Of a stretch of 64,000 nt of DNA, positions 1 to 40,098 are shown in pieces. The DNA is from Escherichia phage vB_EcoM_WFbE185. The notes beneath the pieces are model-generated. The model worked only from the letters and a program-made list of their open reading frames with translations. It searched no databases and was not told where the DNA came from. A program made the translations under genes and the position numbers. Position 1 is the stretch's first letter. Each line of letters opens with the position of its first letter. The stretch lies in sequence record MK373778.1. One strand, given 5' to 3'.

Positions 1-2214
1 TTATTTGGCCGCTTCCACGGCCTTCATGAATTTAACGATTTGAGCGACCTGTTCTTTTGAAAGAGTACCACGTCGTCCCATGTATTCTGACACAATATGA
101 TAATTGGTTTCGAATTCAATAACCATTTTATCATCATTATCATAAGCATTATCTTTAAGCTTATCGAAAATTTTAGCACACAATTCTAACTTCTTATTCA
201 GGTCTGTATTAGTAGCACCTGCGAATCGATTCCATCCCCAACGATTATTTACTGTTGAGAGTTTTGCAAAGTCTTTACTGATTTCTTTGTTCTTAGAGCT
301 AAAATACTTACTAAGGAAGTTAAGCTCTTCATTACGAGTAATATGATTCAAATAAGGCTGTGCTCTACGACTTGGTGATACATACTCATCATAATCTACT
401 TTATCGATTAGCATAATATAGTCATTAATTGATTTTTCAAACAAACATTCTACTTCACCAAGTTTACGAACTTTCTTAGCAATCTGTGGACGGACTACAG
501 TGAACTCTTTAATACCTGACAAATCGGCAATACGGGTCAAGAAATTAGAGTCGTAGTTCAACCAACCTTTATCTGCGTCAAGACATTCAGCATTAGAACG
601 ATTACGAACTATAGCATAACCTTGGATTTCATCAGCTTCACTCGCTGGAATAAAGAGATCTTCCGATACCCAAACATCGTTTTCATTCTTAAAGAACCGA
701 TGAGCACTTGGGGATTTAGGACGAGGCCCATTAGAACGAGTCTTGACTTCAATCCATGGCTTAACGATTTGTAAAAGCTCTGAAGTCTTGTACATGTTAA
801 TGTTGTCGCCATCAAAGATAACTTTAAGGCGTTCCAGAAGTTTCATTGCATCTTCGTCTGTAGGGTCAACGAATAGTACGCTTTTACCAAAACCGCGTGG
901 AACTTTACCGGTTAATTTAACCTCGTCTTTAGACATTTCAATTGAATTAAGAGCTCGCATTAATGGAACGCGTCCCTTAACGTCGTCAATAACAATTTCA
1001 ACGTTTTTAATGTTAATGCCAATCAGACTGTTAATTGAAATAGTTGTCGATGAGCTACCACTTTCACGAATACGACGAAGACGAGGGGATTCAACGATAT
1101 CGTATACGACACCAAGATTACACCACTCAGGCCCCATTTTAAAACGTTTGTACAACTCAGAATAAGTTAGTTGTTCTTTAGAGTATTTCAGTGATTCAAT
1201 ATTAGACCCAGCCTTTTCCATGTATTTACGAGCGGTATAACCAAGAGAATCAATTTCACGGAACACATGACGCGGGTATTTACAATCAATCCATTTCTTA
1301 GAATCTTCAGCGAACAATTTAGCATCGATTTCTGCAACGCGTTTATGGATATTTGCTACTGTACGTTTATCAAATGACAATGCTTCACGAGACGGGGCTA
1401 CATCTAGTTCACCCATAGGGAATTTAATATAAGCTGTAGTGCATCGCGTCATCATCCATGTTTGTTCTTTAATAACACTTCCGATTGGATATACAATACC
1501 ACCATAAACAGCCATGATATTACCACGTTCACCCCATGGAGCTTCCTTGGCCAAATATACATCGTCAAATTCAGGAAAGTATTTAATATCTTTAACACCA
1601 CGAACTTCTGCAATATCACCTAGAGGACGCATAACATATGCAATTTCAGATGCGAACTTTTCAAAATCTTCTGGGTTAACAGGCACAACTACTTCAACGC
1701 CGGTCTGGTCATCAGGACCCATCTTATCTACAAAGGTCGGCTTAATTTGTGGACCCGTGTCATCTTGGTAGATTACGTAACCACGAACTTCACCGTTGTG
1801 ATAAGACGTAAGGTTAAACGTATCGGTATATGCTAGTGGAGCTTTAGAGCCGAGTCCGAATCCACCAATGAAATCGTTACTCGATGTTTTAGTTGAAGCA
1901 AAATATGAGTTATAGATTCCTGGCTCTTCGTCATTACCTCTAATGGTGAAATCGCTCATACCAGGACCAAAGTCTCGAACTACAAAACGTGGGTCCAAAC
2001 GACCTGGAGCCTGAACAATAAACTTATCGGTGCAACCATTAAGAATTTGTCCATCGATACAGTTTGTGATTAATTCACGTACACAAGCCAATTCTTTGTT
2101 TGTATAAAGGTCATTAGACAAAATCTTATAAACTTTGCTATTGCCTTGAATAGTGAATGCTGTGCTCTTACCGCCTGAACCAATAATCGTTTCTTTAGCC
2201 GTTTCAATAATCAT
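1..2214 (-). CDS. rIIA: rIIA protein (737 aa), GHKL/Bergerat-type ATPase-like N-terminal region
   Basis: Size and position match T4 rIIA (about 725 aa, next to gene 39 region); N-terminal motifs ELITNCIDG and DFGPGMS resemble ATPase N and G1 boxes. Confidence 0.8.
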   Translation of the reverse strand: MIIETAKETIIGSGGKSTAFTIQGNSKVYKILSNDLYTNKELACVRELITNCIDGQILNGCTDKFIVQAPGRLDPRFVVRDFGPGMSDFTIRGNDEEPGIYNSYFASTKTSSNDFIGGFGLGSKAPLAYTDTFNLTSYHNGEVRGYVIYQDDTGPQIKPTFVDKMGPDDQTGVEVVVPVNPEDFEKFASEIAYVMRPLGDIAEVRGVKDIKYFPEFDDVYLAKEAPWGERGNIMAVYGGIVYPIGSVIKEQTWMMTRCTTAYIKFPMGELDVAPSREALSFDKRTVANIHKRVAEIDAKLFAEDSKKWIDCKYPRHVFREIDSLGYTARKYMEKAGSNIESLKYSKEQLTYSELYKRFKMGPEWCNLGVVYDIVESPRLRRIRESGSSSTTISINSLIGINIKNVEIVIDDVKGRVPLMRALNSIEMSKDEVKLTGKVPRGFGKSVLFVDPTDEDAMKLLERLKVIFDGDNINMYKTSELLQIVKPWIEVKTRSNGPRPKSPSAHRFFKNENDVWVSEDLFIPASEADEIQGYAIVRNRSNAECLDADKGWLNYDSNFLTRIADLSGIKEFTVVRPQIAKKVRKLGEVECLFEKSINDYIMLIDKVDYDEYVSPSRRAQPYLNHITRNEELNFLSKYFSSKNKEISKDFAKLSTVNNRWGWNRFAGATNTDLNKKLELCAKIFDKLKDNAYDNDDKMVIEFETNYHIVSEYMGRRGTLSKEQVAQIVKFMKAVEAAK

Positions 2215-2226
2215 ATTTTTCTCTCA

Positions 2227-2427
2227 TCACAAGTTACGTTTAAAAATTTCTGCTACTTCAAGAAGTTCTTCTTTAGTAGCTGTATCGGTTTGTATTTTAT
2301 ATCGAATTTCTTTAAAGCGTTCTTTAAAGGACTCTGCTGATTCGATATCAAAAAATCTTTGGATAAGCCGGAATTCCCGGAGCACTGCTTTATCAAAAAG
2401 TTCCAAGTCCACGTTATATGTTCTCAT
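2227..2427 (-). CDS. small protein, positional counterpart of T4 rIIA.1
   Basis: 66-aa ORF immediately upstream of rIIA on same strand. Confidence 0.5.
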   Translation of the reverse strand: MRTYNVDLELFDKAVLREFRLIQRFFDIESAESFKERFKEIRYKIQTDTATKEELLEVAEIFKRNL

Positions 2428-2519
2428 AATATTCTCTTCAGTAGATTCCTAGGGCACTATTACTAAAGACCATATAATCTATCATCTTATGTGTAATAGT
2501 TCCTCAGGCGATTCAGGAT

Positions 2520-3620
2520 TTACGCTGTGAAGATTTTATCCCACATCGCAACAACTGCATCTCGGTTATACTTCTTCCATACGGCTTCAGCACGTTTAAC
2601 TCGAGCTTCGTATGTGTCAGTGAATTCTAATACAGCTTTTGTGTAAAGCGCAACTACTTCTTTCTTAGGAGTAGAGGAATCAATTTCTACACGCACAGTA
2701 TCTGGGTCGTATTCGAATGTCGCGTGCGGATAATCCTTAAAAACTAACTGAATCACAGGGACACCTTTAGAGATGGCTTCAATAGAACTATTCTCTACCG
2801 TACCCGTGTCAGGACACGTATTGATAAGTGCTTTAGCTGTTTTAAGACGTTCCATGATTTCACTGTGTGGAGCATCAATAATAACAGGATACTTAGCCGG
2901 TGGTGCCCATTTACTAGGACAGTATCCTGCACCATTTTCGCCTAGTGCTTTAATCGCTTCAAGAGCAACATCAGTACGACGCATTTTAGTGTCATAACGT
3001 TGTGCACTAATAATCAGATCAGTCGCCGGAAGAACTTCAGGTTTCTCATTCAAACAAATAACCGGATAATCTTCGGCTTCAAACAATGGATTTGCTCGCC
3101 AATAATCATAATCAATTTTGTCAGTAAGACCTGAAGTCATATAACAATATTTGCGTTCAAATTCACGGAAGGCTTTAGTAGGAGCATAACTCTTACCACC
3201 ATTCTTATGAATTTGAATAGTCTGGTCCCAAATTTGAACAATGCCACGAGATACCGGTTCAAATGGTGTTGCCATAAAATTCTTATGAACTTTAGAGAGA
3301 CCTGCGTCTTTAATTGCCTGAACGGTTAGTTTGGTCGGTTCCATTGTAACAACGAAATCGTACTCATTAATGCCGGCTAGTTCAACAATCTTACGAGCCA
3401 TAGTATAACTCATACCTAGACTGAATTTAGTCAGATGACCAACAGGATGATGATTAACCTTCCAGTCACCAAACGTGTCATTATCAAAGCCGATATAATC
3501 AATATCAGCACCGATGGACACAAGATATTTCAACACATTTAAATGTACTGCTTCAAGACCACCTTGTACACGTTCTGGGTTAAATGGGACTGCGCGAGAT
3601 GGGATAAACATAACTTTCAT
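2520..3620 (-). CDS. GT-B fold (GT4-like) glycosyltransferase, candidate DNA hmC sugar transferase
   Basis: 366 aa; N-terminal MKVMFIPS...GGLE and C-terminal GTVENSSIEAISKGVPVI resemble the GT4 E-x7-E donor-binding motif; occupies the slot where T4 has gene 60/mobA. Confidence 0.6.
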   Translation of the reverse strand: MKVMFIPSRAVPFNPERVQGGLEAVHLNVLKYLVSIGADIDYIGFDNDTFGDWKVNHHPVGHLTKFSLGMSYTMARKIVELAGINEYDFVVTMEPTKLTVQAIKDAGLSKVHKNFMATPFEPVSRGIVQIWDQTIQIHKNGGKSYAPTKAFREFERKYCYMTSGLTDKIDYDYWRANPLFEAEDYPVICLNEKPEVLPATDLIISAQRYDTKMRRTDVALEAIKALGENGAGYCPSKWAPPAKYPVIIDAPHSEIMERLKTAKALINTCPDTGTVENSSIEAISKGVPVIQLVFKDYPHATFEYDPDTVRVEIDSSTPKKEVVALYTKAVLEFTDTYEARVKRAEAVWKKYNRDAVVAMWDKIFTA

Positions 3621-3629
3621 AATTAAGCC

Positions 3630-3664
3630 TTATTAAAATTAAAATGAAGCTCCCGAAGGAGCTT
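3630..3664 (-). terminator. intrinsic terminator hairpin (AAGCUCC-UUCG-GGAGCUU) followed by U-rich tract, overlapping gene 39 stop
   Basis: Perfect 7-bp GC-rich stem with UUCG tetraloop on minus-strand RNA, then CAUUUUAAUUUU. Confidence 0.6.
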
Positions 3665-5480
3665 AGGACATCCATTCTTTACGAAGTTCTGAATCATCAC
3701 CCAACAACATTTCAAAGAGTTCTTTCCAATTTTCAGGAAGTTTAACTACGTCGTACACAGGGTTCTGAATCATTTCACGATACTCTGACTTTTCAAGGGA
3801 GCCTAATCCCTTGATGTATCGAATACTATGCTTAGGCAGTGTATCTTTAACTTCTTCATACTCAGCTACAGTATAAAACCATTTTTGAGTTTTGCCAATT
3901 TGTGCAATAATTACAGGTGTTTTAACAAAGCGAATACGTCCTTGTTCAAACAATTCGGGCCAATTACTAAAGAAAGCAAGCAAAGCAGGATAAATACTTC
4001 CAAGACCGTCGTGATCGGCATCGGTCATAATTGCAATATTACGATAGTTCGTATTCTCTGCCTTTTCACCAAGAATAAGACCTGTGATAGCACAGATATC
4101 AAAGAGTTCTTTGTTCTTCATCATATCAGCATATGACATACCCCAGCTATTCATCACCTTACCACGTAATGGGAATCCGCCGTGTAGTTCACGGTCACGA
4201 ACATCAATGAGATAACCAATTGCCGAATCACCTTCTGTTAAAAACAATGTCGTATCTGCATCTTTACCACATTGGTTAGCTTTAATATGCTTATGAACCT
4301 TAGCTTTAGTTGCCTTTTTAGCTGCTTTAGTTTCTGCAGCCTTTTCTGCTGCCAATTTACGAGCTAATGCTGCTTCAACAATAGGCATAATCAAGGCTTC
4401 GTTTTTAAGAAGTGCCTGAGCAATTTTCTTAGCATCTAATTGGATATGATTACGAATATCACCATACGTTGACGTTAAACGTTCTTTAGTCTGAGAATCA
4501 AAACGCATGTTGCTCATGTCTCTAATAAACATCAACATTGTGAGACATTCTTTAACACGAGCTTTAGTGACTTCAATACCCTTATATTTCTTTTTAATAC
4601 CGGGCAAAAGATGTTCGCAGATATCATCCATTACACATTCAACATGATGACCACCATTTTTAGTATGGATGTTATTCACATAAGTTAAATGACGGAAGCC
4701 ATCTGGTGATGTTGTGAATGCTATAGAGACTTTATCATTTTCTTGAATGATGTTATCTTCACCAAATTGTTTAGCAAATCGTTTAAAATTACCATCAACC
4801 TTTTTACCATTAAATGTGAACTTGATATCAGGATAAACGACTGCCAATGTTTGAAGTCTGTCTAAAGTAATATCTAAATAAATTTGAGATAAATTATGCT
4901 CTTCAAATGAAGAGAAATCAGGAGTGAAGATTACTTTAGTGCCTTTACCTTTAGATTTCTTAGAAGACCATGATTTGTTTTCCATTCCGTTTGAACAGTT
5001 AACAGTGATTTCGTTTTCGCCATCTGACGTGATGCCTGTAAACAACGTAGAGAAGATATTAGTTAAACTACTCCCGACGCCGTTCATACCACCAGTCTTG
5101 CGTTCAGAGTCATCACCAAAGTTACCACCGGCCTTTGGAATAGTCCAGGCTGCTACAGGTCCAGGAATTTGTTCACCTGTTTGGTCGGTAACTAAACCTT
5201 GAGGAATACCACGTCCGTTATCTTCCACAGAAACTTGATTATTTTTAATTTGCACATCAATTTTATTTGCAAACTTAAATGATGTACGAATAGCTTCATC
5301 AACCGAGTTGTCAATAATCTCATCGATTAATTTAACCAGACCAGGAACATATTCAACTTGTTGATATTTACCAAACAAAAAACGCTCGTGGGCTTCTTTA
5401 GCAGAAGAACCAATATACATACCACTACGTTTCTTAATATGTTCTACATCTGACAATACCTTAATTTCATTTTTAATCAT
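3663..5480 (-). CDS. 39: DNA topoisomerase II large subunit, unsplit (T4 gp39+gp60 equivalent), 605 aa
   Basis: GyrB-like signature KKRSGMYIGS and EDNGRGIP; continuous 605-aa ORF with no gene-60-type interruption. Confidence 0.9.
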   Translation of the reverse strand: MIKNEIKVLSDVEHIKKRSGMYIGSSAKEAHERFLFGKYQQVEYVPGLVKLIDEIIDNSVDEAIRTSFKFANKIDVQIKNNQVSVEDNGRGIPQGLVTDQTGEQIPGPVAAWTIPKAGGNFGDDSERKTGGMNGVGSSLTNIFSTLFTGITSDGENEITVNCSNGMENKSWSSKKSKGKGTKVIFTPDFSSFEEHNLSQIYLDITLDRLQTLAVVYPDIKFTFNGKKVDGNFKRFAKQFGEDNIIQENDKVSIAFTTSPDGFRHLTYVNNIHTKNGGHHVECVMDDICEHLLPGIKKKYKGIEVTKARVKECLTMLMFIRDMSNMRFDSQTKERLTSTYGDIRNHIQLDAKKIAQALLKNEALIMPIVEAALARKLAAEKAAETKAAKKATKAKVHKHIKANQCGKDADTTLFLTEGDSAIGYLIDVRDRELHGGFPLRGKVMNSWGMSYADMMKNKELFDICAITGLILGEKAENTNYRNIAIMTDADHDGLGSIYPALLAFFSNWPELFEQGRIRFVKTPVIIAQIGKTQKWFYTVAEYEEVKDTLPKHSIRYIKGLGSLEKSEYREMIQNPVYDVVKLPENWKELFEMLLGDDSELRKEWMS

Positions 5481-5502
5481 GTTGTCTCCTCGTTATGAAG
5501 GT

Positions 5503-5527
5503 ATTCTATCATCCGAAATCTAAAGCA
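5503..5527 (-). promoter_or_regulatory. MotA-dependent middle-promoter-like element for gene 39 (MotA box TGCTTTA, 12-bp spacer, -10 TAGAAT)
   Basis: Minus strand reads TTGCTTTA-N12-TAGAAT about 20 nt upstream of the gene 39 SD GAGGAG; same composite repeated upstream of gene 47. Confidence 0.5.
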
Positions 5528-5546
5528 AAAAGGGCCGAAGCCCTTA
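5524..5546 (-). terminator. intrinsic terminator (AAGGGC-UUCG-GCCCUU + UUUUUGCUUU)
   Basis: GC stem with UUCG loop and U5 tract directly after the stop of the 140-aa gene; the U tract overlaps the MotA box. Confidence 0.6.
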
Positions 5547-5966
5547 TTTAAATTTAATTTTCTGAAGTGCATCAATTGCAGCTAAACGCCCTTGTTCACT
5601 TTTAACTGTAATGACCACATCGCCTGATACGATCACCGAACCATCAACAAATTCTATAGAGCCTTTTTTGAAATCGACAGCTGTATCTGATTCAGGAACT
5701 TCTTCAAAGAATTTAAATTCTGCACCGTAAATTAGAATATCACCTTGCATACTAATGATTGTACGTCCAGGTCCATCGGTTTCAGCGGCAATCATTGAAA
5801 CACCATAACCAATCATCTCTTCTACAATAAAATCTCTTGATAATAAAACTGTATGCAGAGTAGTGTTAAGACGTTTACCAGTCGTATTAAGAATTCTCAA
5901 GAAATTATCTTCCTGTCCTTTGATAATACGATATTTCTTACCAACTTCAAAACCTTTAAAAGCCAT
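5544..5966 (-). CDS. hypothetical protein (140 aa)
   Basis: ORF with ATG start adjacent to upstream stop; function unknown. Confidence 0.5.
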   Translation of the reverse strand: MAFKGFEVGKKYRIIKGQEDNFLRILNTTGKRLNTTLHTVLLSRDFIVEEMIGYGVSMIAAETDGPGRTIISMQGDILIYGAEFKFFEEVPESDTAVDFKKGSIEFVDGSVIVSGDVVITVKSEQGRLAAIDALQKIKFK

Positions 5967-5968
5967 AA

Positions 5969-6148
5969 TTAACCCTTCTTAAGTAAGTCGTAAAAACCAC
6001 CGTTCACATGTTTAGGAGCAGAAACCCGACGAGTAGACAGACGATGACATTCAGGGCAAACATCGTTTTCTCGTTCAGAAATTCTTTTAATTTTTTCATA
6101 TTCATGACCACAATCTTCAGATTGACATTTATAGTCGTATAACGGCAT
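5969..6148 (-). CDS. FmdB-family zinc-ribbon small protein (59 aa), not in ORF track
   Basis: Translation [18 protein letters not shown]...CPECH has the two CxxC pairs typical of FmdB-type zinc ribbons; fills the gap exactly, TAATG overlap with upstream gene. Confidence 0.55.
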   Translation of the reverse strand: MPLYDYKCQSEDCGHEYEKIKRISERENDVCPECHRLSTRRVSAPKHVNGGFYDLLKKG

Positions 6149-6579
6149 TATTGTTCCTTAAAGTGAGCTTTCAACATTTGATACAAAGACCATGCCTGGT
6201 CATTATTTTCGATAGTAATCGTCATCACAGGAAATTCAGACAATTCGTCAAGTTCACCAGAATCTTGCTCTTCGGACGCTTGATATGGATTTCCAACTTC
6301 GTCAAAGAACTCTGCTTCATTCGTGGAGAGCCAGATAAAGTTTTCATCAAGGATATCACCGCCTGTTGCGTATCCAACCGTGCCAGTAGATGTCACAATT
6401 TTAGTAGGACGACCAAGATGGTCAACATCTAATACTTTAAATGGTTCCATGCCAAGACGTCGTGCATAAATCCCATTATCAGTGTGGTCTTTAATAAACT
6501 CTTCTTGGGCACGTTTATCTTTAAATTGGTACCATGAGTTAACGCTAAATTTATTAGCCATTAGTAAGTTTCCTTCCAA
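6148..6579 (-). CDS. hypothetical acidic protein (143 aa)
   Basis: ORF in operon context; no recognised motif. Confidence 0.5.
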
Positions 6580-6788
6580 TAAGTTGTACCATTTTCAGTG
6601 ATTTCACGGAAGATACCATAGATAGGCATTTCATCACCGAGTTTTTCGTAAACGTAAACCACTTCGGTGTAGCATAAAAATCCGGTCCAGTTTTTCTGTA
6701 CAACAACTAAATCAGGATTAAACAGAACATCTTCAAACTCATCGATGTTTGAATCAGTAGTTACGTTTTTAATGATTTGACGTTTCAT
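6561..6788 (-). CDS. hypothetical protein (start moved to Met16)
   Basis: ATG at 6788 preceded by GAGGAG SD; the longer track ORF would include the promoter. Confidence 0.45.
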
Positions 6789-6814
6789 AATATTCTCCTC
6801 TTGTTTTGATAGGT

Positions 6815-7369
6815 CTATAGTATCATAGACCATAGTTGTTGTACATCATTTAGCAAAATAAAATCAACTTGTTCTGCCAATGAACGTCTGAACATTAATT
6901 GACAACTTCCGAGGATGAAATCAGGTGCTTCATAGACCGCGATGTAGTATCCTTTAGCTTTCAAAAGTTCAACATCCACCTGGTCATCAAACCATGCATA
7001 AACCGCGTCAACACTTTCAAATCCAAAATAGAACCCTTTAGCCCAATCTTCACTCAATTCAAATGTGTGCTCAATTCTATAGTATCTTAAGATATTTTGT
7101 TCAAGGAGTTTGTCTTCATTTACTGTAGGACGATTAGGGACATTATAGTTGTCGCCGTGATGGTAGAAGTTACCTGAGAGTATTCCATGCTTATCAAGGA
7201 ACTCCCATGTTTCTTCAGAGTTGTCGGTGCCCGACCAACCGTATGGCGAACGAGGTTCTTTATTCCAAGAGGTTTCCCAAATTCTGACGGCTTTACCGTC
7301 TTCGATAGCAATTCCTGGTAATGATTCACGTTGAGTACAAAAACTACGTTCTACGCGGTAAACTAACAT
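6815..7369 (-). CDS. hypothetical protein (184 aa)
   Basis: ORF with upstream promoter at 7396-7424. Confidence 0.5.
   Translation of the reverse strand: MLVYRVERSFCTQRESLPGIAIEDGKAVRIWETSWNKEPRSPYGWSGTDNSEETWEFLDKHGILSGNFYHHGDNYNVPNRPTVNEDKLLEQNILRYYRIEHTFELSEDWAKGFYFGFESVDAVYAWFDDQVDVELLKAKGYYIAVYEAPDFILGSCQLMFRRSLAEQVDFILLNDVQQLWSMIL
6817..6845 (-). promoter_or_regulatory. early-type sigma70 promoter (-35 TGTACA, -10 TACTAT with TGn)
   Basis: Member of a repeated intergenic consensus TGTTAtTATAGACCTATCAAC with GTTTAC/TGTACA 17-18 bp upstream. Confidence 0.5.
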
Positions 7370-7395
7370 ATTATTCTCCTCTGGTTGATATGGTT

Positions 7396-7424
7396 ATAAT
7401 ATCAAAACCAGAGGAGAAGTAAAC
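7396..7424 (-). promoter_or_regulatory. early-type promoter (-35 GTTTAC, 17 bp, -10 TATTAT)
   Basis: GTTTAC-N17-TATTAT on minus strand; flanking inverted repeat CTGGTT...AACCAG. Confidence 0.55.
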
Positions 7425-7428
7425 TACT

Positions 7429-7848
7429 TTATGCAAAAGATGCTTGGCTATATCCTTTGATTTGGAATTCAGGAACTACCATGAACTGTCCAGCGAAAAC
7501 GATGTTATAAAGCTTAACACCATCTTCTACCCAATGGTCGCTAATAAATCCGGCGATTTGCTTAGTTTTCCATGGTGTTCCATCAGTTGCCGCAGCAATA
7601 GTGAATTCATGGTCTTTTTCAACAGAAACTGATCTGCATAGTCCCCATTTGAACGCTTTTTCTTCTGGTTCAATGAATTGGCTTTTAACGTAGCCAATGT
7701 TACCATCGGCGTCACGAACTTTAACTTCGTTACGTCCAAAAACCGGATCACTCACAGAAAGAACTTCAACCAACTTCCCAGCAACTTTAGAGCGAGAAGC
7801 AACAGATACATATACGTAATCACCTGTAGAGAGATTTACAATATTCAT
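7429..7848 (-). CDS. paralog family protein A (139 aa)
   Basis: Shares RSK(V/A)AGKLVEV and D(H/Q)WVEDG.KLYNIVF.G.F.VV motifs with the next two genes. Confidence 0.5.
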   Translation of the reverse strand: MNIVNLSTGDYVYVSVASRSKVAGKLVEVLSVSDPVFGRNEVKVRDADGNIGYVKSQFIEPEEKAFKWGLCRSVSVEKDHEFTIAAATDGTPWKTKQIAGFISDHWVEDGVKLYNIVFAGQFMVVPEFQIKGYSQASFA

Positions 7849-7857
7849 AATAATTCC

Positions 7858-8322
7858 TTAAGCTTTACGAGGAGACACATAGCGAGTGATTTCAGATTCT
7901 TTAACAACTCGGAAGTCACCTAAGAATACGATATTGTATAACTTTTCACCATCTTCAACCCATTGGTCACTAATGAAGCCACACATAGTATCAGTTTTGC
8001 TTGGATAACCGTATTCATCGATGAAGTCAAATTCTTTATCAGTCTGGAATTCAACGCCTTTGCAAAGGGCCCATTTGAACTGTGTAGTAGGCTCAACTAT
8101 ATCGCTTGAAGCAAAGTGGGCACTTACACGAGTTTCCAAGAATTTAGGACTTACATAGGCGAACTGAGTTTCAGTTTTTCCAGAACTAGGAATGATTCGA
8201 ACTTTAACTTCTTTAATACGGCCCATGCCATTAGTACGAAGTCCTACTACTTCAACCAGCTTTCCTGCAGCTTTAGAACGAGACGCTGTCGATACACGTT
8301 TAATTTCACCAATATTAATCAT
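7858..8322 (-). CDS. paralog family protein B (start moved to Met22; alternative start 8385)
   Basis: Paralog of 7429-7848; the promoter-like element at 8354-8382 lies inside the longer ORF. Confidence 0.45.
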   Translation of the reverse strand: MINIGEIKRVSTASRSKAAGKLVEVVGLRTNGMGRIKEVKVRIIPSSGKTETQFAYVSPKFLETRVSAHFASSDIVEPTTQFKWALCKGVEFQTDKEFDFIDEYGYPSKTDTMCGFISDQWVEDGEKLYNIVFLGDFRVVKESEITRYVSPRKA

Positions 8323-8353
8323 ATTTTTTCTCTCTTTGTTTAAATTGAATTCA

Positions 8354-8382
8354 TTATACTCCATCCATCCTTGGATGTACAA
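8354..8382 (-). promoter_or_regulatory. promoter with palindromic spacer (TGTACA, CATCC-TT-GGATG, TATAAT)
   Basis: Variant of the repeated hairpin-promoter element seen at 8911, 51151 and 52171. Confidence 0.4.
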
Positions 8383-8384
8383 CA

Positions 8385-8879
8385 TTAATTTAGAATATTA
8401 ACTACTGCACTACGTGGAACAACGCTAAAATCACCGGCATGAACAACGTTCAGAAGTTCAACCCCATCTTCAATCCACTGATCAGTTACCCATCCACTCA
8501 CTGGACCTGCGAACGGACGACGAATTGAAACAGCTTTACACAACAAATCAGTAGGCTCAATAGGCTTAATCAGAGTACCGTACATACAAGCGATATCCAT
8601 ATCAGTACAGATGTCTTTAACGGGTTCTACTTCTTCAACCAACAGTTCAAAGTCGGTGCTTGGAAGGGCGGTAGTAGAAATTGTACCGTATGAATTTTTA
8701 ATTTCTAAGAATAACCAAGGGCCTTCAGCTTGTTTGATGAAGTTAATAATAGTGAAACTATTACCTTGAGTGGCACCTAAAATTTCACAAAACTTTTCAT
8801 AAGCTCGCACTGAAGCACCGTACCAGTTGATTTGTTTTTCGTCTTTCAGGATGTAAGTAGCCGTAGTATTGATATTCAT
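8385..8879 (-). CDS. paralog family protein C (164 aa)
   Basis: C-terminal WVTDQWIEDGVELLNVVHAGDFSVV matches the paralog motif. Confidence 0.5.
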   Translation of the reverse strand: MNINTTATYILKDEKQINWYGASVRAYEKFCEILGATQGNSFTIINFIKQAEGPWLFLEIKNSYGTISTTALPSTDFELLVEEVEPVKDICTDMDIACMYGTLIKPIEPTDLLCKAVSIRRPFAGPVSGWVTDQWIEDGVELLNVVHAGDFSVVPRSAVVNILN

Positions 8880-8910
8880 AATGTTTTTCCTGTTTGGTTA
8901 AGATAGAAAG

Positions 8911-8940
8911 ATTATACTCCAACCATCCTTGGTTGTAAAC
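8911..8940 (-). promoter_or_regulatory. early promoter (-35 GTTTAC, -10 TATAAT) with 6-bp stem hairpin CAACCA-AGGA-TGGTTG in the spacer
   Basis: A 46-bp element identical to the one at 51135-51180. Confidence 0.55.
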
Positions 8941-8945
8941 TGGTT

Positions 8946-9623
8946 TTATCGCTGTTTTACACTTAACGGGTCAGGATTCTCAGGGACATCTTCAAGGCCA
9001 AGCGCATAACGCTGAGCATATTTTAACATCAAAATATCTTTAGCACAATCGTGAATACTATCATGGGCAACGAATCCTTTCAGCGTACCCATCGGTAATG
9101 GACACATACTTAATCCTCGTGTCAACGAGTAAGCTTCGATTGCCGTACGAATATCGCGTTGAGCCCAGAATTTAACCGGTTCTAATTTATCAGTATCAAT
9201 ATCTGGTTCAAGAACACCTTCATCACGATAGAGGTCACGAATCAAATCGACCAAGATCGGGAAGTCAAAGCTCATACCACGGCACCACATCTGTGATTTC
9301 CATTGGTCAACTTTATTAGCTCGACAATAATCTAAAAAGATTTTAATGCCTTCAAGCGTAGTGACATCGTCTTCAGACGGAGCCAAGTTTTTACGCGCTT
9401 CAGCCGATTGTTCTTTCCACCATTTCATAGTGGATTTAGCGAAAACTCGCTTCCCTTTCTGAGAAGCTAAATTAAATTTAATTCGCTTACCTCGTTGAAC
9501 AAGTTCTTCAAATGATTCAACAACTTCAGGGTCGGAATTATATGCAATAACCGCAAGGTCAATAACAGCCGCTTTTGATGTATTGCCGAATGTTTCAAAA
9601 TCTATAATAACATCAGTGCTCAT
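8946..9623 (-). CDS. dexA: exonuclease A (DEDDh 3'-5' exonuclease)
   Basis: 225 aa; VIIDFETFG motif; size and position match T4 DexA next to dda. Confidence 0.8.
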   Translation of the reverse strand: MSTDVIIDFETFGNTSKAAVIDLAVIAYNSDPEVVESFEELVQRGKRIKFNLASQKGKRVFAKSTMKWWKEQSAEARKNLAPSEDDVTTLEGIKIFLDYCRANKVDQWKSQMWCRGMSFDFPILVDLIRDLYRDEGVLEPDIDTDKLEPVKFWAQRDIRTAIEAYSLTRGLSMCPLPMGTLKGFVAHDSIHDCAKDILMLKYAQRYALGLEDVPENPDPLSVKQR

Positions 9624-9632
9624 AATTTTCTC

Positions 9633-10946
9633 TCAAATAAAATGGACGTCAAACCGGCCACGAGTTGTGCCGACATACAATAACTGTTTAGCTAATTCTG
9701 AATCGGCATAATGGATACACGGTGTATAAACAAAGGCCGTGTCAACAGACATACCCTGGGCCTTATGGAAGGTTGATACTGGTAGTGCCTTCACCTTAGT
9801 GAACATACGTTTAGCATCCCAGAATTCGCTCCATGGAGCTTTACCACCTTTATTCCAGAATTTGTATGTTTCTGCGGTCTTAGCCAAAAACAAATTGAAT
9901 TTATAAAGCTCTTCTTCAGAAGAAATAACCTTTATATCTTCTCGGATATATTCTTCATCATCCCCATATGTTTCTACTGTAAGATTCCAGTATCGTATCA
10001 TATATTCGCCTGAAACGCCACGTGCTTTAACGAATGTAGACGTTTCTACAGCATCTCGAATACGAACGAATTGCCCGTTATTGAAAAGCATTTCAGTCAT
10101 ATTTTTGCCATCTAGCTTGTACGTCTTAGTAAACGGCTCTTGTAGAACAATGACTTCGTCTTTAATAAATGGTTTTTCTGTTTCAAGAAGTTTTCGGCGA
10201 ATAATTGAATTTAACTTGTCCACCGACTTATTTGTGAATGCCATCATTCGATTTTCGAAAAGGTCTTCAGGAGTTTTAACGACGTTAAAATAGTTCATCA
10301 TATACGATTTAAGGTCTGTATATCCATGAACACCGTGCCCATCAACTACTTTATCGTAAATCCATTTGCCATTACGAATATCAGTCGCAACATCAATAAT
10401 TGGTGCATTGCTACGTTTAACTTCTGTAAGGTTGCATTGCACGAAGTCTTTGTGAGTGAAGAAAGGACTTAGATACGCAGCTGATTCGCCTGGGTCTACC
10501 GGACGAATCTGGCATCGGTCACCAATTCCAATTACTGTGCACCATTTAGGGATACTAGCTAACATTATTTTAAACAGAGAACGGTCACACATTGACGCTT
10601 CATCAAATAACAGTACACGACACAAGGCTAAGTCGGGAACCTTTTTCTGTTCAAACAATACGTTTTCTTCGTATGTAGTTGGGTTGATTTTAAGAATGCT
10701 ATGAATAGTCGATGCTTCTTGACCGGCAAGTTTGCTTAGAACCTTTTTAGCAGCATGTGTAGGGGCTGCTAAAATAATACCTGATTCTCCGGCAGAAATA
10801 AGAGCTTCAACGATGAATCTAGTAAGGGTTGTTTTACCTGTACCAGCGGGCCCATTAATAGTTACGTGATGTTTCTTTTCTTTAATAGCGTTCATAACAA
10901 CGTTGAAGGCGTTTTTCTGACCTTCAGTCAAATCATCAAATGTCAT
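9633..10946 (-). CDS. dda: Dda DNA helicase (SF1)
   Basis: 437 aa; Walker A INGPAGTGKTT; size and context match T4 Dda. Confidence 0.85.
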   Translation of the reverse strand: MTFDDLTEGQKNAFNVVMNAIKEKKHHVTINGPAGTGKTTLTRFIVEALISAGESGIILAAPTHAAKKVLSKLAGQEASTIHSILKINPTTYEENVLFEQKKVPDLALCRVLLFDEASMCDRSLFKIMLASIPKWCTVIGIGDRCQIRPVDPGESAAYLSPFFTHKDFVQCNLTEVKRSNAPIIDVATDIRNGKWIYDKVVDGHGVHGYTDLKSYMMNYFNVVKTPEDLFENRMMAFTNKSVDKLNSIIRRKLLETEKPFIKDEVIVLQEPFTKTYKLDGKNMTEMLFNNGQFVRIRDAVETSTFVKARGVSGEYMIRYWNLTVETYGDDEEYIREDIKVISSEEELYKFNLFLAKTAETYKFWNKGGKAPWSEFWDAKRMFTKVKALPVSTFHKAQGMSVDTAFVYTPCIHYADSELAKQLLYVGTTRGRFDVHFI

Positions 10947-11254
10947 CGTAAAGTCCCTGCAATTGGAATACTAACAATACGGCCTGTGTCCAGAATTCGT
11001 TGATACAATCTTTGCGTCTCCGCATCTAGTTTAACGTGTTTCATTTCAAGCTTATTAAACCAAAACTTACGCGGAGTTTCGACCATTCTTAGAACTCCCA
11101 TTTTTAAATCTGTTTTATACTGTGTTTTCAAAGTATCGAAAACTTTATCTGCAATATCCTTTCTAAAAAATACTGCAGGACGATGCTCATCAAGTGGAAC
11201 CGGGACAGTAAATCCTTCCATATCTCGATAAACTATTGCATATACATAAACCAT
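10943..11254 (-). CDS. hypothetical protein (dda.1 position)
   Basis: 103-aa ORF overlapping dda start by 4 nt. Confidence 0.45.
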   Translation of the reverse strand: MVYVYAIVYRDMEGFTVPVPLDEHRPAVFFRKDIADKVFDTLKTQYKTDLKMGVLRMVETPRKFWFNKLEMKHVKLDAETQRLYQRILDTGRIVSIPIAGTLR

Positions 11255-11256
11255 AA

Positions 11257-12003
11257 TTAACCTTTAATCAGTTGGAATAATGATGCGCTAAGTGGTAAGC
11301 CACGTTTCAATTTTAATTTACCAATGAAACCAATCTTTTCAAAACGTTGCAGACCTTGGATAACTTTATCATATGTATCGAAAAGCGATTCAGCGTCAGT
11401 TAATTTAGTTTTAGTTTTCCAGTCAGAGCCTTTAAGAAGAACGTTGAGTTTAGTAAGTTCATGGCCTTCTGCTTGATGTGAGCCATTAATGCGTGCTTTC
11501 AAAGCAACAATTCTAAGTTTAGATTCGTTAGATAAAGGTTGATTTTTCATCATGTTCGCCATATGCTTAACACGATTTTCACGTTTTGCTCGTATTTTTA
11601 AAATAGTATCATAAACCTTTTTAATTTGGGCCCATTTCTTCTCGTCGAGATTAAGTTTCTCTACTTTACGGGCAGAAGGATTAGCAATACGTCTTGCAAC
11701 AGCGTCACGTTTCTCAATAAGTTCTTCTAATGTTAAATCAGAACGAGCCGTGTTATATTTTTTCTTAACTGGGATAACATTACCTTTAATGTAGCCGATA
11801 TCGTTATTAAAACGTTCTAAGGATAATTTCTCACCTTCAACAGAGTTATTGAAAGATTCGCCTGAGTAAGCGCAGACCTTTTGATCAAGAATGTTTTTAA
11901 GGTAATTAAAGTCTAAGTTAAAATCCTTAGAGCGTCTCTTCGCAGAAGCTCTGGTGTGGTCAAGACGACGATTGATTTTGTTAATTTTATTATTTGATAA
12001 CAT
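11257..12003 (-). CDS. basic hypothetical protein (248 aa), positional counterpart of T4 srd
   Basis: Size and position only; contains SLERFNNDIGYIKGNVIPV, which loosely resembles an HNH-like motif. Confidence 0.4.
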   Translation of the reverse strand: MLSNNKINKINRRLDHTRASAKRRSKDFNLDFNYLKNILDQKVCAYSGESFNNSVEGEKLSLERFNNDIGYIKGNVIPVKKKYNTARSDLTLEELIEKRDAVARRIANPSARKVEKLNLDEKKWAQIKKVYDTILKIRAKRENRVKHMANMMKNQPLSNESKLRIVALKARINGSHQAEGHELTKLNVLLKGSDWKTKTKLTDAESLFDTYDKVIQGLQRFEKIGFIGKLKLKRGLPLSASLFQLIKG

Positions 12004-12053
12004 AATATTTTCCTCTGTCTTACGGACGTTAAGGTCATTTAGCTGATAAGTCT

Positions 12054-12082
12054 ATAATATCATGCCCTCAGGTAGTGTACAC
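12054..12082 (-). promoter_or_regulatory. early-type promoter (-35 GTGTAC, -10 TATTAT)
   Basis: Same consensus family; upstream of the 248-aa gene with SD GAGGAAA. Confidence 0.5.
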
Positions 12083-12097
12083 TCTTTTTTCGTAAAA

Positions 12098-12123
12098 TGC
12101 TTTAATTTTTTATGTGTTATAAT
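12098..12123 (+). promoter_or_regulatory. plus-strand middle-promoter-like element (MotA box TGCTTTA, 13 bp, TGt-TATAAT)
   Basis: aaaTGCTTTAattttttatgTGtTATAAT read on the plus strand, pointing antisense into the ADP-ribosyltransferase gene. Confidence 0.4.
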
Positions 12124-12156
12124 GGTTCTGAGTTCCATCCGGTTATTCCAATTCAG

Positions 12157-12765
12157 TCAGTAACTGACAATAGACAGATTCCAGATTGTATAACGTCCAT
12201 CTTGAATAATAGAATCTACACGCAGTGTAGTCCCTATAGGGAGCATAAATTCACATTCGTCGGATATAAGTCTAGCATTAGACCGTCTTGTCGCTTCAGG
12301 GAAAGCTCCATTGAACTCACAAGATGGCGCAGCCAGAATCATGTTAAGCATATGTTCACGGAAGTTGAAAGCAAATGGTGCATCTTTGATGCAGAACATA
12401 TTAAATGTTCCGTAAAAATTATACGAAGCAAAGTTACGTGCTACACCGAACACTGGGCTGAAGCTCATTACTCTGTCAAATTTAATAATACTACCAATGC
12501 CTTTATCATCGAGTGCGGCCATAGTTTTCTTAGAGATTCCACGATACATTGTCTCAGGAACAGAAGACGTCCAATTTCTACGAACGATTGAACTTAACTC
12601 CTGTTGAATACAGTCTGGCTTGTTTTCCATACACTGCCACAGTACACTTTGTTCAATGTCACTGAATTGACTATCAATTTCATACTGCAATTCATCTTGA
12701 TATTCAGGGTTTTGAGCACGACGAACCATTTCTTCAATTTCACACTCGTTATACGGCATAAACAT
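12157..12765 (-). CDS. ADP-ribosyltransferase, ModA/ModB family
   Basis: R-S-ExE triad: YRGIS, SFSPV, ECEFMLP; 202 aa, comparable to T4 ModA/ModB. Confidence 0.7.
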   Translation of the reverse strand: MFMPYNECEIEEMVRRAQNPEYQDELQYEIDSQFSDIEQSVLWQCMENKPDCIQQELSSIVRRNWTSSVPETMYRGISKKTMAALDDKGIGSIIKFDRVMSFSPVFGVARNFASYNFYGTFNMFCIKDAPFAFNFREHMLNMILAAPSCEFNGAFPEATRRSNARLISDECEFMLPIGTTLRVDSIIQDGRYTIWNLSIVSY

Positions 12766-12793
12766 TTAGGTTTCTCCTGTGGTTGATAGGTCT

Positions 12794-12822
12794 ATAGTAT
12801 CATCATCGGAAGAGTTTGTACA
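12794..12822 (-). promoter_or_regulatory. early-type promoter (-35 TGTACA, -10 TACTAT)
   Basis: GATAGGTCTATAGTATCAT consensus block between the two mod-like genes. Confidence 0.5.
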
Positions 12823-13404
12823 CTAAAAATTCAACATTTTCAAATGAATGATTTTGTATAATCGAGATAAAGGGTCATATTCTAAGTCTTCAATTTCCAC
12901 AATCTCAAATCTAGAGATACTTGAGACCATGTACTCTTGTTCAGATTCAATCATATCTAAGACGTCAACACGCGTTTCTTCCATAACATGTTTAGGGTTC
13001 TTTCCGGCGAGTACAATGTTAACCATGTTTTGGTAGTAATCAAAAATGAATGGAGCATTCCTGAGACTAAGAATAGTGTACGTCTGATATTCCCATCTCC
13101 CGGAGAATTGACGAGCCGTACCGAAATCAGTTGTGAACGATGTTACTCGTCCAGGAGACCAATGGCATCCAACAGAAAGAAGGGAAAGACGTTCTACTTC
13201 TTCTGGAGTTACACCACGGTAGAGTTCTACTGGTACTGTAGAAGTCATATGCTTACGAACAAGATGGTCTAATTCATAGTGGAAATCTGGGTCTTCCTTA
13301 GAATCGGTGCAAGCCCAGAGAATGTTTTGTTCTTGGCGGGTGAATTTGCTATCAATCAGATTTGTTAGGTATTCACGTTCTTGAAGTTCAGATTGACATG
13401 TCAT
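12823..13404 (-). CDS. ADP-ribosyltransferase, ModA/ModB family (second copy)
   Basis: YRGVT, TSFTT, EQEYMVS motifs; 193 aa. Confidence 0.7.
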   Translation of the reverse strand: MTCQSELQEREYLTNLIDSKFTRQEQNILWACTDSKEDPDFHYELDHLVRKHMTSTVPVELYRGVTPEEVERLSLLSVGCHWSPGRVTSFTTDFGTARQFSGRWEYQTYTILSLRNAPFIFDYYQNMVNIVLAGKNPKHVMEETRVDVLDMIESEQEYMVSSISRFEIVEIEDLEYDPLSRLYKIIHLKMLNF

Positions 13405-13431
13405 GATAGACCTCCATTTAAAGATAAGCCT

Positions 13432-13460
13432 ATCATAACACGAGAGGAGGGAATGTAAAC
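13432..13460 (-). promoter_or_regulatory. early-type promoter (-35 GTTTAC, 17 bp, TGt-TATGAT)
   Basis: GTTTAC-N17-TATGAT directly upstream of the second mod-like gene. Confidence 0.5.
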
Positions 13461-13620
13461 TACTTTTTAAGCTTTCCTACTAAAGGTCCATCAGGTCCAG
13501 GTTGTTCTAACATGAATAAGGATGCTTTAAAAAGCAATGTCATCCCTTTCACCATTCGATACCATGTCTCAAAGTCTTTTTCCTTGATTTCTAGTAAGAA
13601 TTTCTCTTTAAATTTCTCTT

Positions 13621-13809
13621 TCATTTCCAAGGACTCCATGGTGGAGGGTCGTCATAATAGGACGCAAGGTCTTTCAGGGCTTCAACAGGTAAACTAAAGC
13701 CGTGTCGTTGTATAATACTATCTAGTTCATCAACAAGTTCACTACGATGCACTTTAGGAGCCTCAACTTCAGGCTCGTCAAACATACTCATAAGGTCCAT
13801 ATTACTCAC
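13621..13809 (-). CDS. hypothetical acidic protein (62 aa)
   Basis: ORF in operon context. Confidence 0.4.
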   Translation of the reverse strand: MSNMDLMSMFDEPEVEAPKVHRSELVDELDSIIQRHGFSLPVEALKDLASYYDDPPPWSPWK

Positions 13810-14266
13810 CTAAATAAAAACTAGGCTGCTCGGAGAATGTTTCTAGCGCTACACCTTTTGTCTTAAAAAATTTCCAAATGGCTCGTTGCAAATGGATTAA
13901 ATCCGCTAATGATGTAATAAAGTATTTTTTGGCAAAATACTTATGGTCTCGCTTTTCAAACAAGTCTAAACGCTTTTCAGGATTCACATAAACGGCATTT
14001 TCCGTAGATTCATAACCTAAGTCCTTTATGCCTTCTTCAAGACTAAACGGAGAATTTTTAGAACGAGTAATAGCTCCAACTCGCTCTACACGAATTTTGT
14101 AACCTTTAGGAATCTGCAATTTGCAGAATTCTTCTACGATATATTGCGGATTATTTAGACTTTTGTTAATGAGAATAGCTATTTCTAGTGGAGTCTTATC
14201 TTCCACTGGTATATGTTTAAACGACTTGGCTTCAAGCAAGTACATTTTAAATAACATAGCATCCAT
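13802..14266 (-). CDS. hypothetical protein (154 aa)
   Basis: ORF; no recognised motif. Confidence 0.5.
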   Translation of the reverse strand: MDAMLFKMYLLEAKSFKHIPVEDKTPLEIAILINKSLNNPQYIVEEFCKLQIPKGYKIRVERVGAITRSKNSPFSLEEGIKDLGYESTENAVYVNPEKRLDLFEKRDHKYFAKKYFITSLADLIHLQRAIWKFFKTKGVALETFSEQPSFYLGE

Positions 14267-14445
14267 TATAATTTCCTCGATGGTTCACCCATATAAAGTT
14301 TTACAATACGTTCGCCTTCATCTTCGACGAGCTTCTCTTCATGTTTCTGGAATTCTTTAGCCATATTCTCTTCAAGAACATCTAACCAATCTTCTGGTCC
14401 GACTCCATCATTCCAGCTTTTAAACCATTTAACTATCTTGTTCAT
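14266..14445 (-). CDS. hypothetical small protein (start moved to Met10)
   Basis: Moved start removes overlap with the upstream ORF. Confidence 0.35.
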   Translation of the reverse strand: MNKIVKWFKSWNDGVGPEDWLDVLEENMAKEFQKHEEKLVEDEGERIVKLYMGEPSRKL

Positions 14446-14633: not shown

Positions 14634-14643
14634 TTCGCCTGGC

Positions 14644-14871: not shown

Positions 14872-14899
14872 ATTGTTCTCCTCTTGAGTAAGTAGGAAT

Positions 14900-14929: not shown

Positions 14930-14935
14930 TGTAGA

Positions 14936-14964: not shown

Positions 14965-14972
14965 TAAATTAT

Positions 14973-38610: not shown

Positions 38611-38839
38611 TACACGCTTCAGCCATTTTAAGAATAGAGCCAGGAGTATCGTTGTCCATTATATTAAAGCTAAATTCAATAGCCCAGTCGGTGCAGACAT
38701 GAACTGCTTTAACTTCATTGCCTTCAACGTGTAATGGCTCAATCCAATACTTGATAGTGTTCTCGAATCCATCATCATCTTTAATGTCTATTTCAACTTC
38801 AAGCCCGAGCCCAGCATTGTTAAATTCATCTAAAGTCAT
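38582..38839 (-). CDS. hypothetical acidic protein (85 aa)
   Basis: ORF in operon context. Confidence 0.45.
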   Translation of the reverse strand: MTLDEFNNAGLGLEVEIDIKDDDGFENTIKYWIEPLHVEGNEVKAVHVCTDWAIEFSFNIMDNDTPGSILKMAEACIEDAYNDED

Positions 38840-39855
38840 TGTGTTGCCTCAATATAAAGTTCGTTGGAATATTTGACCAGTGCTTCTCTGTCTTCGTCTG
38901 AGATATCTGGAATCGCGTCAATATATTCTTTAATGATATCTTGAAGTGATTTAATCTCGATTTCCTGGTCGTCATCAGATTCAACATTGTTATCAACTTT
39001 AGAAACCATACGAAGAGAGTGAACTACTTTTTCAAGTTCAGATTCAAACTTAGTCAACTCTGAATCAATTTCTGATACTATAACACGTACGGCTAGATTA
39101 GTATAATCAGAATAATTGATTTTGCCTTTAAACGGATAAGTGATTCGTCGATGCCATGTTGTTTCATTAGGAATAAATTCCATACGTTCAACATCAGTAT
39201 CAAATACCCAGAATCCGCGCGGGTCGTTCTCATCGCCTGCAGTAAGGGTCCATGGTGTCCCAATATATTTGACGTTAGCAGCTTCAGAGATTGTGTGGAA
39301 GTGGCCAGACCAGACTTGTTTATAGGTCTTTAAGAAATCAGGTTCAAGCCCATGAGACTTCATTCCTTTATAGAAATAAAAGCCATTCAGTTCCCAGTGC
39401 CCAACACAATACGCTGCGGAAGAAGTCTTGATGTGCTCTAAGATTTCACCTGTATTTTCTTCACACATCCATGGAACGATATCAATCAGACATCCGTCAA
39501 AATCTACAGTAGTCGGATGCTCGTAAATAGTAAAGTTTTCAAATTGAGTTAACAATTCAGAAACAGTGTTAGGTGTTATTGTATTCTTAAACGCCATGTC
39601 ATGGTTTCCTATCGTGACATGAACGTGAATGCCTGCTTTAGAAATCATATCAACGATTTCACGATTGAATTCCATTGTACGATGTGTTATTGCTTTACGG
39701 ACGTCAAACCAATCACCGTACTGAATCCAAGTTTTAATCCCGTGTTTCTTAGAGTATTCAATTGCTTGTTGAATACCATCACGTTGAATATCTTGAACCC
39801 ATGGGTCGTCTTGTTTGACTCCGATATGGAAGTCGCCTAAGTGCAAAATTTTCAT
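38836..39855 (-). CDS. 47: recombination endonuclease subunit gp47 (Mre11/SbcD-like)
   Basis: 339 aa; phosphoesterase motifs MKILHLGDFHIG, GDWFD, GNHD, GHWE; same length as T4 gp47. Confidence 0.9.
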   Translation of the reverse strand: MKILHLGDFHIGVKQDDPWVQDIQRDGIQQAIEYSKKHGIKTWIQYGDWFDVRKAITHRTMEFNREIVDMISKAGIHVHVTIGNHDMAFKNTITPNTVSELLTQFENFTIYEHPTTVDFDGCLIDIVPWMCEENTGEILEHIKTSSAAYCVGHWELNGFYFYKGMKSHGLEPDFLKTYKQVWSGHFHTISEAANVKYIGTPWTLTAGDENDPRGFWVFDTDVERMEFIPNETTWHRRITYPFKGKINYSDYTNLAVRVIVSEIDSELTKFESELEKVVHSLRMVSKVDNNVESDDDQEIEIKSLQDIIKEYIDAIPDISDEDREALVKYSNELYIEATQ

Positions 39856-39926: not shown

Positions 39927-40098
39927 ATCCACATAGTACACCGTACAGAGGCTCATTTGAACTTTTAAATCGAATGGGCTTGTACGTAATAGTTCCTTCG
40001 GCTTTAGCTTTATCATAAGACTCTTTAAAACGTCTCATTCTTTCTGCTTTGCCTTTACGGATTTTATCGAAATTTTCAGAAGTCGGGATGTTCGTCAT
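39925..40098 (-). CDS. small basic protein (57 aa), not in ORF track
   Basis: MTNIPTSENFDKIRKGKAERMRRFKESYDKAK...; stop overlaps the terminator stem. Confidence 0.35.
   Translation of the reverse strand: MTNIPTSENFDKIRKGKAERMRRFKESYDKAKAEGTITYKPIRFKSSNEPLYGVLCG

Follow-up and report, generated by a model that had tools for sequence, protein, structure and literature searches.

Two intergenic regions of Escherichia phage vB_EcoM_WFbE185 (MK373778.1), ahead of genes 39 and 47, each carry a C(UUCG)G hairpin fused to a candidate MotA-type middle promoter, and these sites probably correspond, in the RB69 lineage, to the T4 middle promoters P39 and P47, with each promoter set tightly behind the terminator hairpin of the early gene that precedes it. 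Both lie in the 64,000-nt stretch that was analysed, referred to here as the window. The sequence anatomy, the orthology to mapped T4 promoters and the conservation with compensatory stem changes are direct observations. A sequence-only reading of the window had proposed such a fusion at the same two places, and it was found at both, on the minus strand, the strings quoted in that reading being the reverse complement of the window. The gene names it gave also hold, the downstream ORFs encoding the fused 60plus39 topoisomerase subunit (gene 39) and the gp47 nuclease (gene 47). Since both sites match T4-mapped and RB69-predicted promoters, the finding is an ordinary one; the feature is already known from mapped T4 promoters, from RB69 predictions and as the PeSL/PmSL class. 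The RB69 lineage retains the T4 textbook arrangement, in which transcription of genes 39 and 47, which act in replication and recombination, restarts in a MotA-dependent way behind an early terminator; this arrangement is recognisable from the raw sequence alone. What is new here is modest, namely the multi-lineage conservation with compensatory stems, a spacing of 4-6 nt, and the placement of the units at boundaries, by which the published PeSL/PmSL idea comes to include promoters of core genes in T-even and RB69-type phages.

Table. Positions in the window of the parts of the two hairpin-promoter sites and of the adjoining gene ends and starts.
Feature	Position	Strand	Remarks
Site 1, stop codon TAA of upstream ORF	5546-5544	minus	last two bases are the first two of the hairpin
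Site 1, hairpin AAGGGC-ttcg-GCCCTT	5545-5530	minus	from the sequence and a terminator scan
Site 1, T-run	5531-5527	minus	both terminator U-tract and part of MotA box
Site 1, MotA box TTTTGCTTTA	5530-5521	minus	perfect match to (a/t)(a/t)(a/t)TGCTTtA
Site 1, spacer GATTTCGGATGA, 12 nt	5520-5509	minus	ends TGA; extended -10 (TGn), TG at 5511-5510
Site 1, -10 hexamer TAGAAT	5508-5503	minus	
Shine-Dalgarno GAGGAG of gene 39	5491-5486	minus	
Gene 39 ATG	5480-5478	minus	ORF 3663..5480, fused 60plus39
Site 2, stop codon TAG of a-gt.2	39927-39925	minus	overlapped by hairpin 5' arm
Site 2, hairpin AGGAACTC-ttcg-GAGTTCCT (RNA: AGGAACUC-UUCG-GAGUUCCU)	39926-39907	minus	
Site 2, MotA box TTTTGCTTTA	39905-39896	minus	overlaps T-run 39907-39902
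Site 2, spacer TAAACGGATGA, 11 nt	39895-39885	minus	ends TGA (extended -10)
Site 2, -10 hexamer TAGAAT	39884-39879	minus	
Shine-Dalgarno GAGG of gene 47	39866-39863	minus	
Gene 47 ATG	39855-39853	minus	ORF 38836..39855

Read along the minus strand, sites 1 (5545-5503) and 2 (39926-39879) have the same order of parts: a C(UUCG)G hairpin, TTTTTGCTTTA, 12 or 11 nt, and TAGAAT. In full, site 1 reads TAA-GGGC-TTCG-GCCC-TTTTTGCTTTA-GATTTCGGATGA-TAGAAT-22 nt (with GAGGAG)-ATG, and site 2 reads TAG-GAACTC-TTCG-GAGTTCC-TTTTTTGCTTTA-TAAACGGATGA-TAGAAT-23 nt-ATG. The gaps from stop codon to ATG, 63 and 69 nt, are filled by hairpin, Mot box, -10 and Shine-Dalgarno sequence, with the 5' arm of the hairpin overlapping the upstream stop codon and the -10 placed 22-23 nt ahead of the ATG at both sites. 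The stem has 6 bp at site 1 (loop region GGGC-UUCG-GCCC) and 8 bp at site 2 (ACUC-UUCG-GAGU), four of them G-C pairs in each case, and both loops are closed by a C-G pair. Folding gave -11.4 kcal/mol for a 46-nt context of site 1 (z = -1.96, a modest gain over shuffles) and -13.9 kcal/mol for a 51-nt context of site 2. C(UUCG)G hairpins are reportedly unusually stable and common in T4 intercistronic regions, an observation ascribed to Tuerk et al. in 1988; the hairpins described here have the same UUCG loop, C-G closure and bias to the transcribed strand as those of T4, and no difference of substance was seen. Both sites combine the features of intrinsic terminators, that is, a GC-rich stem, a loop of 4 nt and, immediately behind the stem, an unbroken run of 5-6 U. 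The hairpin of site 1 is predicted to be an intrinsic terminator or 3' stabiliser of the upstream RB69ORF005c-type gene, and that of site 2 a putative intrinsic terminator behind a-gt.2. No Rfam family was found at either site down to E = 1.

On the promoter side, a TAnnnT -10 stands at the required 12 +/- 1 bp from the MotA box (12 nt at site 1, 11 nt at site 2), and both sites read TGaTAGAAT, an extended -10 of the TGn type. By eye, the hexamer 17 nt upstream at site 1 is TTTTTG, with a 2/6 match to the -35, so that neither this site nor site 2, judged by eye alone, has a usable sigma-70 -35 hexamer; site 1 was not among the matches listed by a sigma-70 consensus scan of positions 1-20000. 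By analogy with T4 P39 and P47, in which transcription begins at the 7th nt past the -10, the start sites are predicted near 5496 and 39872, respectively. An extra MotA site provided by a GCTT in the hairpin loop was considered and dropped, as GCTT is present at site 1 (GGGCTTCGG) and absent from site 2 (CTCTTCGG).

The joining of hairpin and box at two sites is far beyond chance. The pattern TGCTTNA-N11-13-TANNNT had 15 matches in the window against 3.5 +/- 1.8 in shuffles, a 4-fold excess, with 10 of the 15 on the minus strand; when the full WWWTGCTTNA box was asked for, four minus-strand matches were left, half of which are sites 1 and 2. The minus strand of the 64-kb window has eight UUCG hairpins with a stem of 6 bp or longer, against one on the plus strand. 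Two of the ~10 motif matches lie no more than 5 nt from one of ~10 strong hairpins in 64 kb, where simple arithmetic gives an expectation of ~0.01. On the plus strand, matches to the MotA-type pattern at 12098-12123, 33292-33317 and 59234-59257 are situated inside or antisense to minus-strand genes and are probably due to chance; a plus-strand promoter, Pm:12081, appears in the RB69 list of Nolan et al. 2006 (PMC1524935).

The sequence-only reading had also pointed to an identical -10 block at the two sites. An exact 13-mer, CGGATGATAGAAT, is indeed found at both and occurs exactly twice in the window (5515-5503 and 39891-39879), with 0.08 matches expected when up to one mismatch is allowed. 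An exact 13-nt repeat within 64 kb is in itself not rare, and what counts is its same register in two promoters. From the position frequencies of 29 mapped T4 middle promoters, the probability that all 13 positions ending at -7 are common to two promoters is ~1.1e-4 per pair, and none of the 406 T4 promoter pairs has more than 10 of the 13 positions in common. For the ancestral 12/13 match the probability is ~2e-3 per pair, which by arithmetic amounts to ~1 such pair among all promoter pairs of a genome. Conservation of the unit nevertheless does not extend to this block, since RB69, with TAAAAT at P47, matches at 12 of the 13 positions. TAAAAT is the P47 -10 of RB69 and of several distant lineages, and the sublineage formed by the window and phage JS09 has one A-to-G change; it is this change that made the two blocks identical, and the 13-nt identity is specific to that sublineage.

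The window belongs to an RB69-like T4-type phage of the genus Mosigvirus, and over 1 kb around site 2 its identity stands at 98-99% with several coliphages and at 97.7% with RB69. Neither motA nor asiA lies within the 64-kb window; RB69 carries both (motA, 162001..162633; asiA, 159866..160138), and on this basis both are presumably present in this phage. In RB69, the middle promoter Pm:5538 (5498..5538, minus strand) is overlapped by a TransTerm terminator at 5535..5546 with a score of 100, and Pm:40046 (40007..40046, minus strand, score 22) by another at 40044..40061, also with a score of 100 (Nolan et al. 2006, PMC1524935, additional files 4 and 6). The box of site 1 falls within RB69 Pm:5538 and that of site 2 within Pm:40046. 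These two promoters were published as coordinates alone, and their overlap with the terminators is not discussed in the available part of the paper's text. The RB69 sequence of site 1 is identical to the window, and that of site 2 is one base off in the -10, TAAAAT (RB69 locus 1979-1984) versus TAGAAT at 39879-39884. No transcript 5' or 3' end data for this phage or RB69 were found in the literature, nor was any usable T4 3'-end or global start-site mapping.

The closest counterparts with identified promoters are in T4. Upstream of gene 39, T4 has AAAGGCC-ttcg-GGCCTTT-A-GCTTTA-12 nt-TATAAT (GGCCttcgGGCC-TTTAGCTTTA-12 nt-TATAAT), and upstream of 47.1/47 it has AAAGGGC-ttcg-GCCCTTT-A-GCTTTA-12 nt-TATAAT (AGGGCttcgGCCCT-TTAGCTTTA-12 nt-TATAAT). 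Table 1 of Hinton 2010 (PMC2988021), with Guild et al. 1988 and Hsu & Karam 1990 as sources, includes both P39 (start 5349) and P47 (start 36576) as identified T4 middle promoters, and in NC_000866 both starts are the 7th base past the -10 that aligns with the TAGAAT of the window. The MotA box consensus is (a/t)(a/t)(a/t)TGCTTtA, centred near -30, with a spacing of 12 +/- 1 bp to the -10 (Hinton 2010, PMC2988021). T4 and the window therefore agree in genomic position, in the C(UUCG)G hairpin set against the MotA box, in the 11-12 nt to a TAnnnT and in a short leader, and this likeness of layout at both loci, together with the listed starts 7 nt past the aligned -10, supports, through orthology, the earlier reading of the sites as middle promoters. 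The two phages differ in detail. T4 has TTTAGCTTTA with TATAAT, whereas the window has TTTTGCTTTA with TAGAAT; T4 P39 lacks the TGn that both window promoters possess. The gene before P39 is 39.1 in T4 and an unrelated RB69ORF005c-type gene (phrog_622) in the window, the gene before P47 is a-gt in T4 but a-gt.2 in the window, and the 47.1 gene that T4 has between P47 and gene 47 is absent from the window. The U-tract of T4 is broken (UUUAGCUUUA), which could make termination inefficient or incomplete. In the first 50 kb of T4, with 29 mapped middle promoters, a hairpin ending at -31 to -33 was found in P39, P47 and PmobB alone; the UUCG hairpin of P43 lies within the promoter itself, and at P55.8 the hairpin ends at -52. 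In T4, the annotated ATG of 47.1 (36584) overlaps the -10 of P47 (TATAATG) and lies upstream of the P47 start at 36576, so that 47.1 as annotated is not translatable from the P47 transcript.

In IMG/VR loci from many T4-like lineages, a hairpin followed by a T-run, GCTTT, ~12 nt and TAnnnT stands upstream of gene 39, in at least 10 distinct hairpin variants. At gene 47, at least 12 lineages have the unit. Stem pairs were counted outward from the loop by a script, as MAFFT left stems of different length out of register. In ten hairpins every pair was kept, while positions 2-5 from the loop alternate among G-C, C-G, A-T and T-A. The distance from the G-C stem core to GCTT is constant at 4-6 nt across lineages at both loci while the stems change. 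The fusion of hairpin and MotA box is old and has been maintained by compensatory changes at this fixed spacing. The same compensatory changes, together with the RB69 TransTerm calls at the same positions, favour the earlier suggestion that the hairpins are terminators, as a prediction. In several more distant gene-39 relatives (L028-L038), both the GCT-type box and the hairpin-promoter unit are missing from the region before gene 39. At the gene 47 locus, the spacer motif CGG(G)A(T)GA ahead of TAnAAT is old. Concerted evolution of P39 and P47 was considered and rejected, as at least eight other lineages have clearly different P39 and P47, which group by locus. Within T4 and within the window the two promoters are alike, and in RB69 they match at 12/13; an old exchange between P47 and P39 in a Mosigvirus ancestor is possible but unproven. 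A conserved unit, as proposed by the sequence-only reading, is thus borne out in at least 10 lineages per locus, but it is special neither to the two loci nor to MotA promoters, as the PeSL/PmSL class shows.

If the two sites function as their T4 counterparts do, early transcripts arriving from upstream would form the C(UUCG)G hairpin followed by UUUUUGCUUU, and some fraction of them would terminate there or be trimmed back to the stable 3' end. Once MotA and AsiA have been made, the AsiA-remodelled sigma-70 holoenzyme would sit on the -10 (TGaTAGAAT) with MotA on TTTTGCTTTA at about -30, and transcription would restart from the fused promoter ~22 nt ahead of the ATG of gene 39 or gene 47. A single T-run would be both the U-tract of the terminator and the W-W-W-T portion of the MotA box. 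Since the MotA/AsiA complex does not require contact with DNA beyond the box on the upstream side, such a fusion would be tolerated. For this phage, both the efficiency of termination and the dependence on MotA are inferred; the TGn in both window promoters makes some MotA-independent activity possible.

The adjacency could be explained instead by the shortness of T4-type intergenic regions, in which hairpin and promoter would be independent, no unit would be selected and the likeness of the two sites would be coincidental. Hairpins do also precede early-type promoters in the window (14965, 20796, 58475) and lie in or near other middle promoters (33292, 45268), an abutting hairpin is seen in just 3 of the 29 mapped T4 middle promoters of the first 50 kb, the RB69 block matches at 12/13 when ~1 such match is expected among all promoter pairs, and P39 and P47 are clearly unlike within single genomes of other lineages. 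We nevertheless consider this explanation unlikely, given the constant 4-6 nt from stem to GCTT at both loci while the stems change, units that are 100% conserved beside diverged coding sequence, and a T-run that serves both signals. Another view of the hairpins, which we hold to be a little less improbable though still doubtful, is that they are mainly RNA 3'-end stabilisers or processing barriers, or DNA recombination linkers, rather than terminators. The stems are short, the U-tracts of T4 are interrupted, the units are found at gene-content and mosaic boundaries, and the stability and T4 intercistronic frequency reported for C(UUCG)G hairpins would suit such roles. PeSL stem-loops have also been proposed as recombination sites (Arbiol et al. 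2010, PMC2839356). Weighing on the side of termination are the TransTerm score of 100 for both RB69 hairpins, the unbroken 5-6 U that immediately follow the stem in the window, and a reporter assay in which termination at a PeSL stem-loop equalled that at rrnB T1 (PMC2839356); the stabiliser or linker roles and termination are in any case not mutually exclusive.

It is less probable still that the promoters are MotA-independent extended -10 (TGn) sigma-70 promoters from which genes 39 and 47 would be restarted at all pre-replicative times. TGaTAGAAT stands at both sites, AsiA reportedly does not inhibit TGn/-10 promoters, and some T4 middle promoters are active with polymerase alone on unmodified DNA (Hinton 2010, PMC2988021). 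However, the MotA box is perfect and correctly spaced at both sites, both T4 orthologues are identified middle promoters even though TGn is missing from T4 P39, and about half of the T4 middle promoters have TGn too (Hinton 2010, PMC2988021).

From their sequence, the units of the window belong to the described PeSL/PmSL class. PmSLs, which are to middle promoters what PeSLs are to early ones, consist of a stem-loop, a TGCTT Mot box and a -10 (Comeau et al. 2014, PMC4122927), and a link has been drawn between the class and indels that distinguish related phages (Arbiol et al. 2010, PMC2839356; Comeau et al. 2014, PMC4122927). The published PmSLs come from vibriophage nt-1 and most PeSLs from hyperplastic regions next to ORFans, whereas the units of the window precede conserved core genes. 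For the PeSL class, recombination between copies, with mini-circles as products, was addressed by inverse PCR on infected cells (Arbiol et al. 2010, PMC2839356).

Several observations place the units at points where genomes of this group differ. In T4, a cassette of mobB and a-gt lies between a-gt.2 and 47.1 and is flanked by the PmobB (start 38682) and P47 units, the bracketing units being found at 1584-1625 and 3690-3735 of locus L002 (T4 35000-39500). RB69-type phages including the window differ in having one unit between a-gt.2 and 47 and no mobB and a-gt cassette. The window aligns to T4 a-gt.2 through the hairpin and GCTTTATAAA, after which the -10 region resembles both T4 promoters; since spacer and -10 are like both PmobB and P47, the cassette junction can be placed just "at or after GCTTTATA". 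Lineages differ in whether 47.1 directly follows the P47 unit. In JS09 (L098) both intergenic units are 100% identical to the window, and the adjoining 5' part of gene 47 is 74% identical. The divergent patch in this part of the gene, ~39500-39844, has ~70% identity (62-78% per 50 nt), its upstream edge is at most ~11 nt from the ATG of gene 47, beside the P47 unit, and its flanks are 98-100% identical. The units coincide with gene-content and mosaic boundaries, and these observations, few in number, fit the published idea of linkers for modular exchange. We suggest tentatively, as a rather unlikely proposal, that P39, P47 and T4 PmobB are copies of one PmSL cassette with the role of a short-homology linker in the genomes of T-even and RB69-type phages. 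If so, recombination between the copies could have inserted or removed mobB and a-gt and set the mosaic breakpoints at gene 47, and copies within a genome could occasionally have been homogenised. Such homogenisation would explain the P47-type spacer CGGATGATA in the P39 of the RB69 lineage as well as the off-consensus TTTAGCTTTAT common to P39 and P47 of T4.

Other hairpins of the window stand close to promoters as well. Those at 14965-14944, 20796-20775 and 58475-58460 (minus strand) are followed 5-18 nt on by early-type promoters (TTTACA/TTTACT, 17 nt, TAAGAT/TATGAT/TATAGT) and resemble PeSL composites. Since early promoters, too, have hairpins set against them, the layout is not confined to promoters of the MotA type. 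A terminator followed by a promoter is therefore a general feature of these compact genomes, and the tight fusion to a MotA box is a recurrent subtype of it. At 33292-33273 (minus strand, on to ~33255) a UUCG hairpin, AATGGGAC-ttcg-GTCCCATT, lies inside the promoter and is followed by tggag-TATAAT. This is the counterpart of T4 P43 (AAGGGGC-ttcg-GCCCCTT-atttggag-TATAAT, start 29933), where the hairpin's own GCTTCG (ACTTCG in the window) occupies the expected place of the MotA box. The hairpin at 45268-45243 (minus strand), with GTTGTTTGCATAaatgcgaagggtgtTATAAT in the next 45 nt, is the counterpart of the mapped T4 P55.8; the box is a non-consensus TTTGCATA, and the hairpin lies ~10 nt upstream of it, unfused.

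Two minor observations concern the surroundings of site 1. The ORF before its hairpin (5547-5966, minus strand) encodes 140 aa of the RB69ORF005c type (phrog_622), and the C-terminal 39 residues give a weak match to the goF family profile (E = 7.5e-6). The GAGGAG Shine-Dalgarno sequence of gene 39 (5491-5486, minus strand) includes GGAG, the motif cleaved by the T4 RegB endoribonuclease in early messages.
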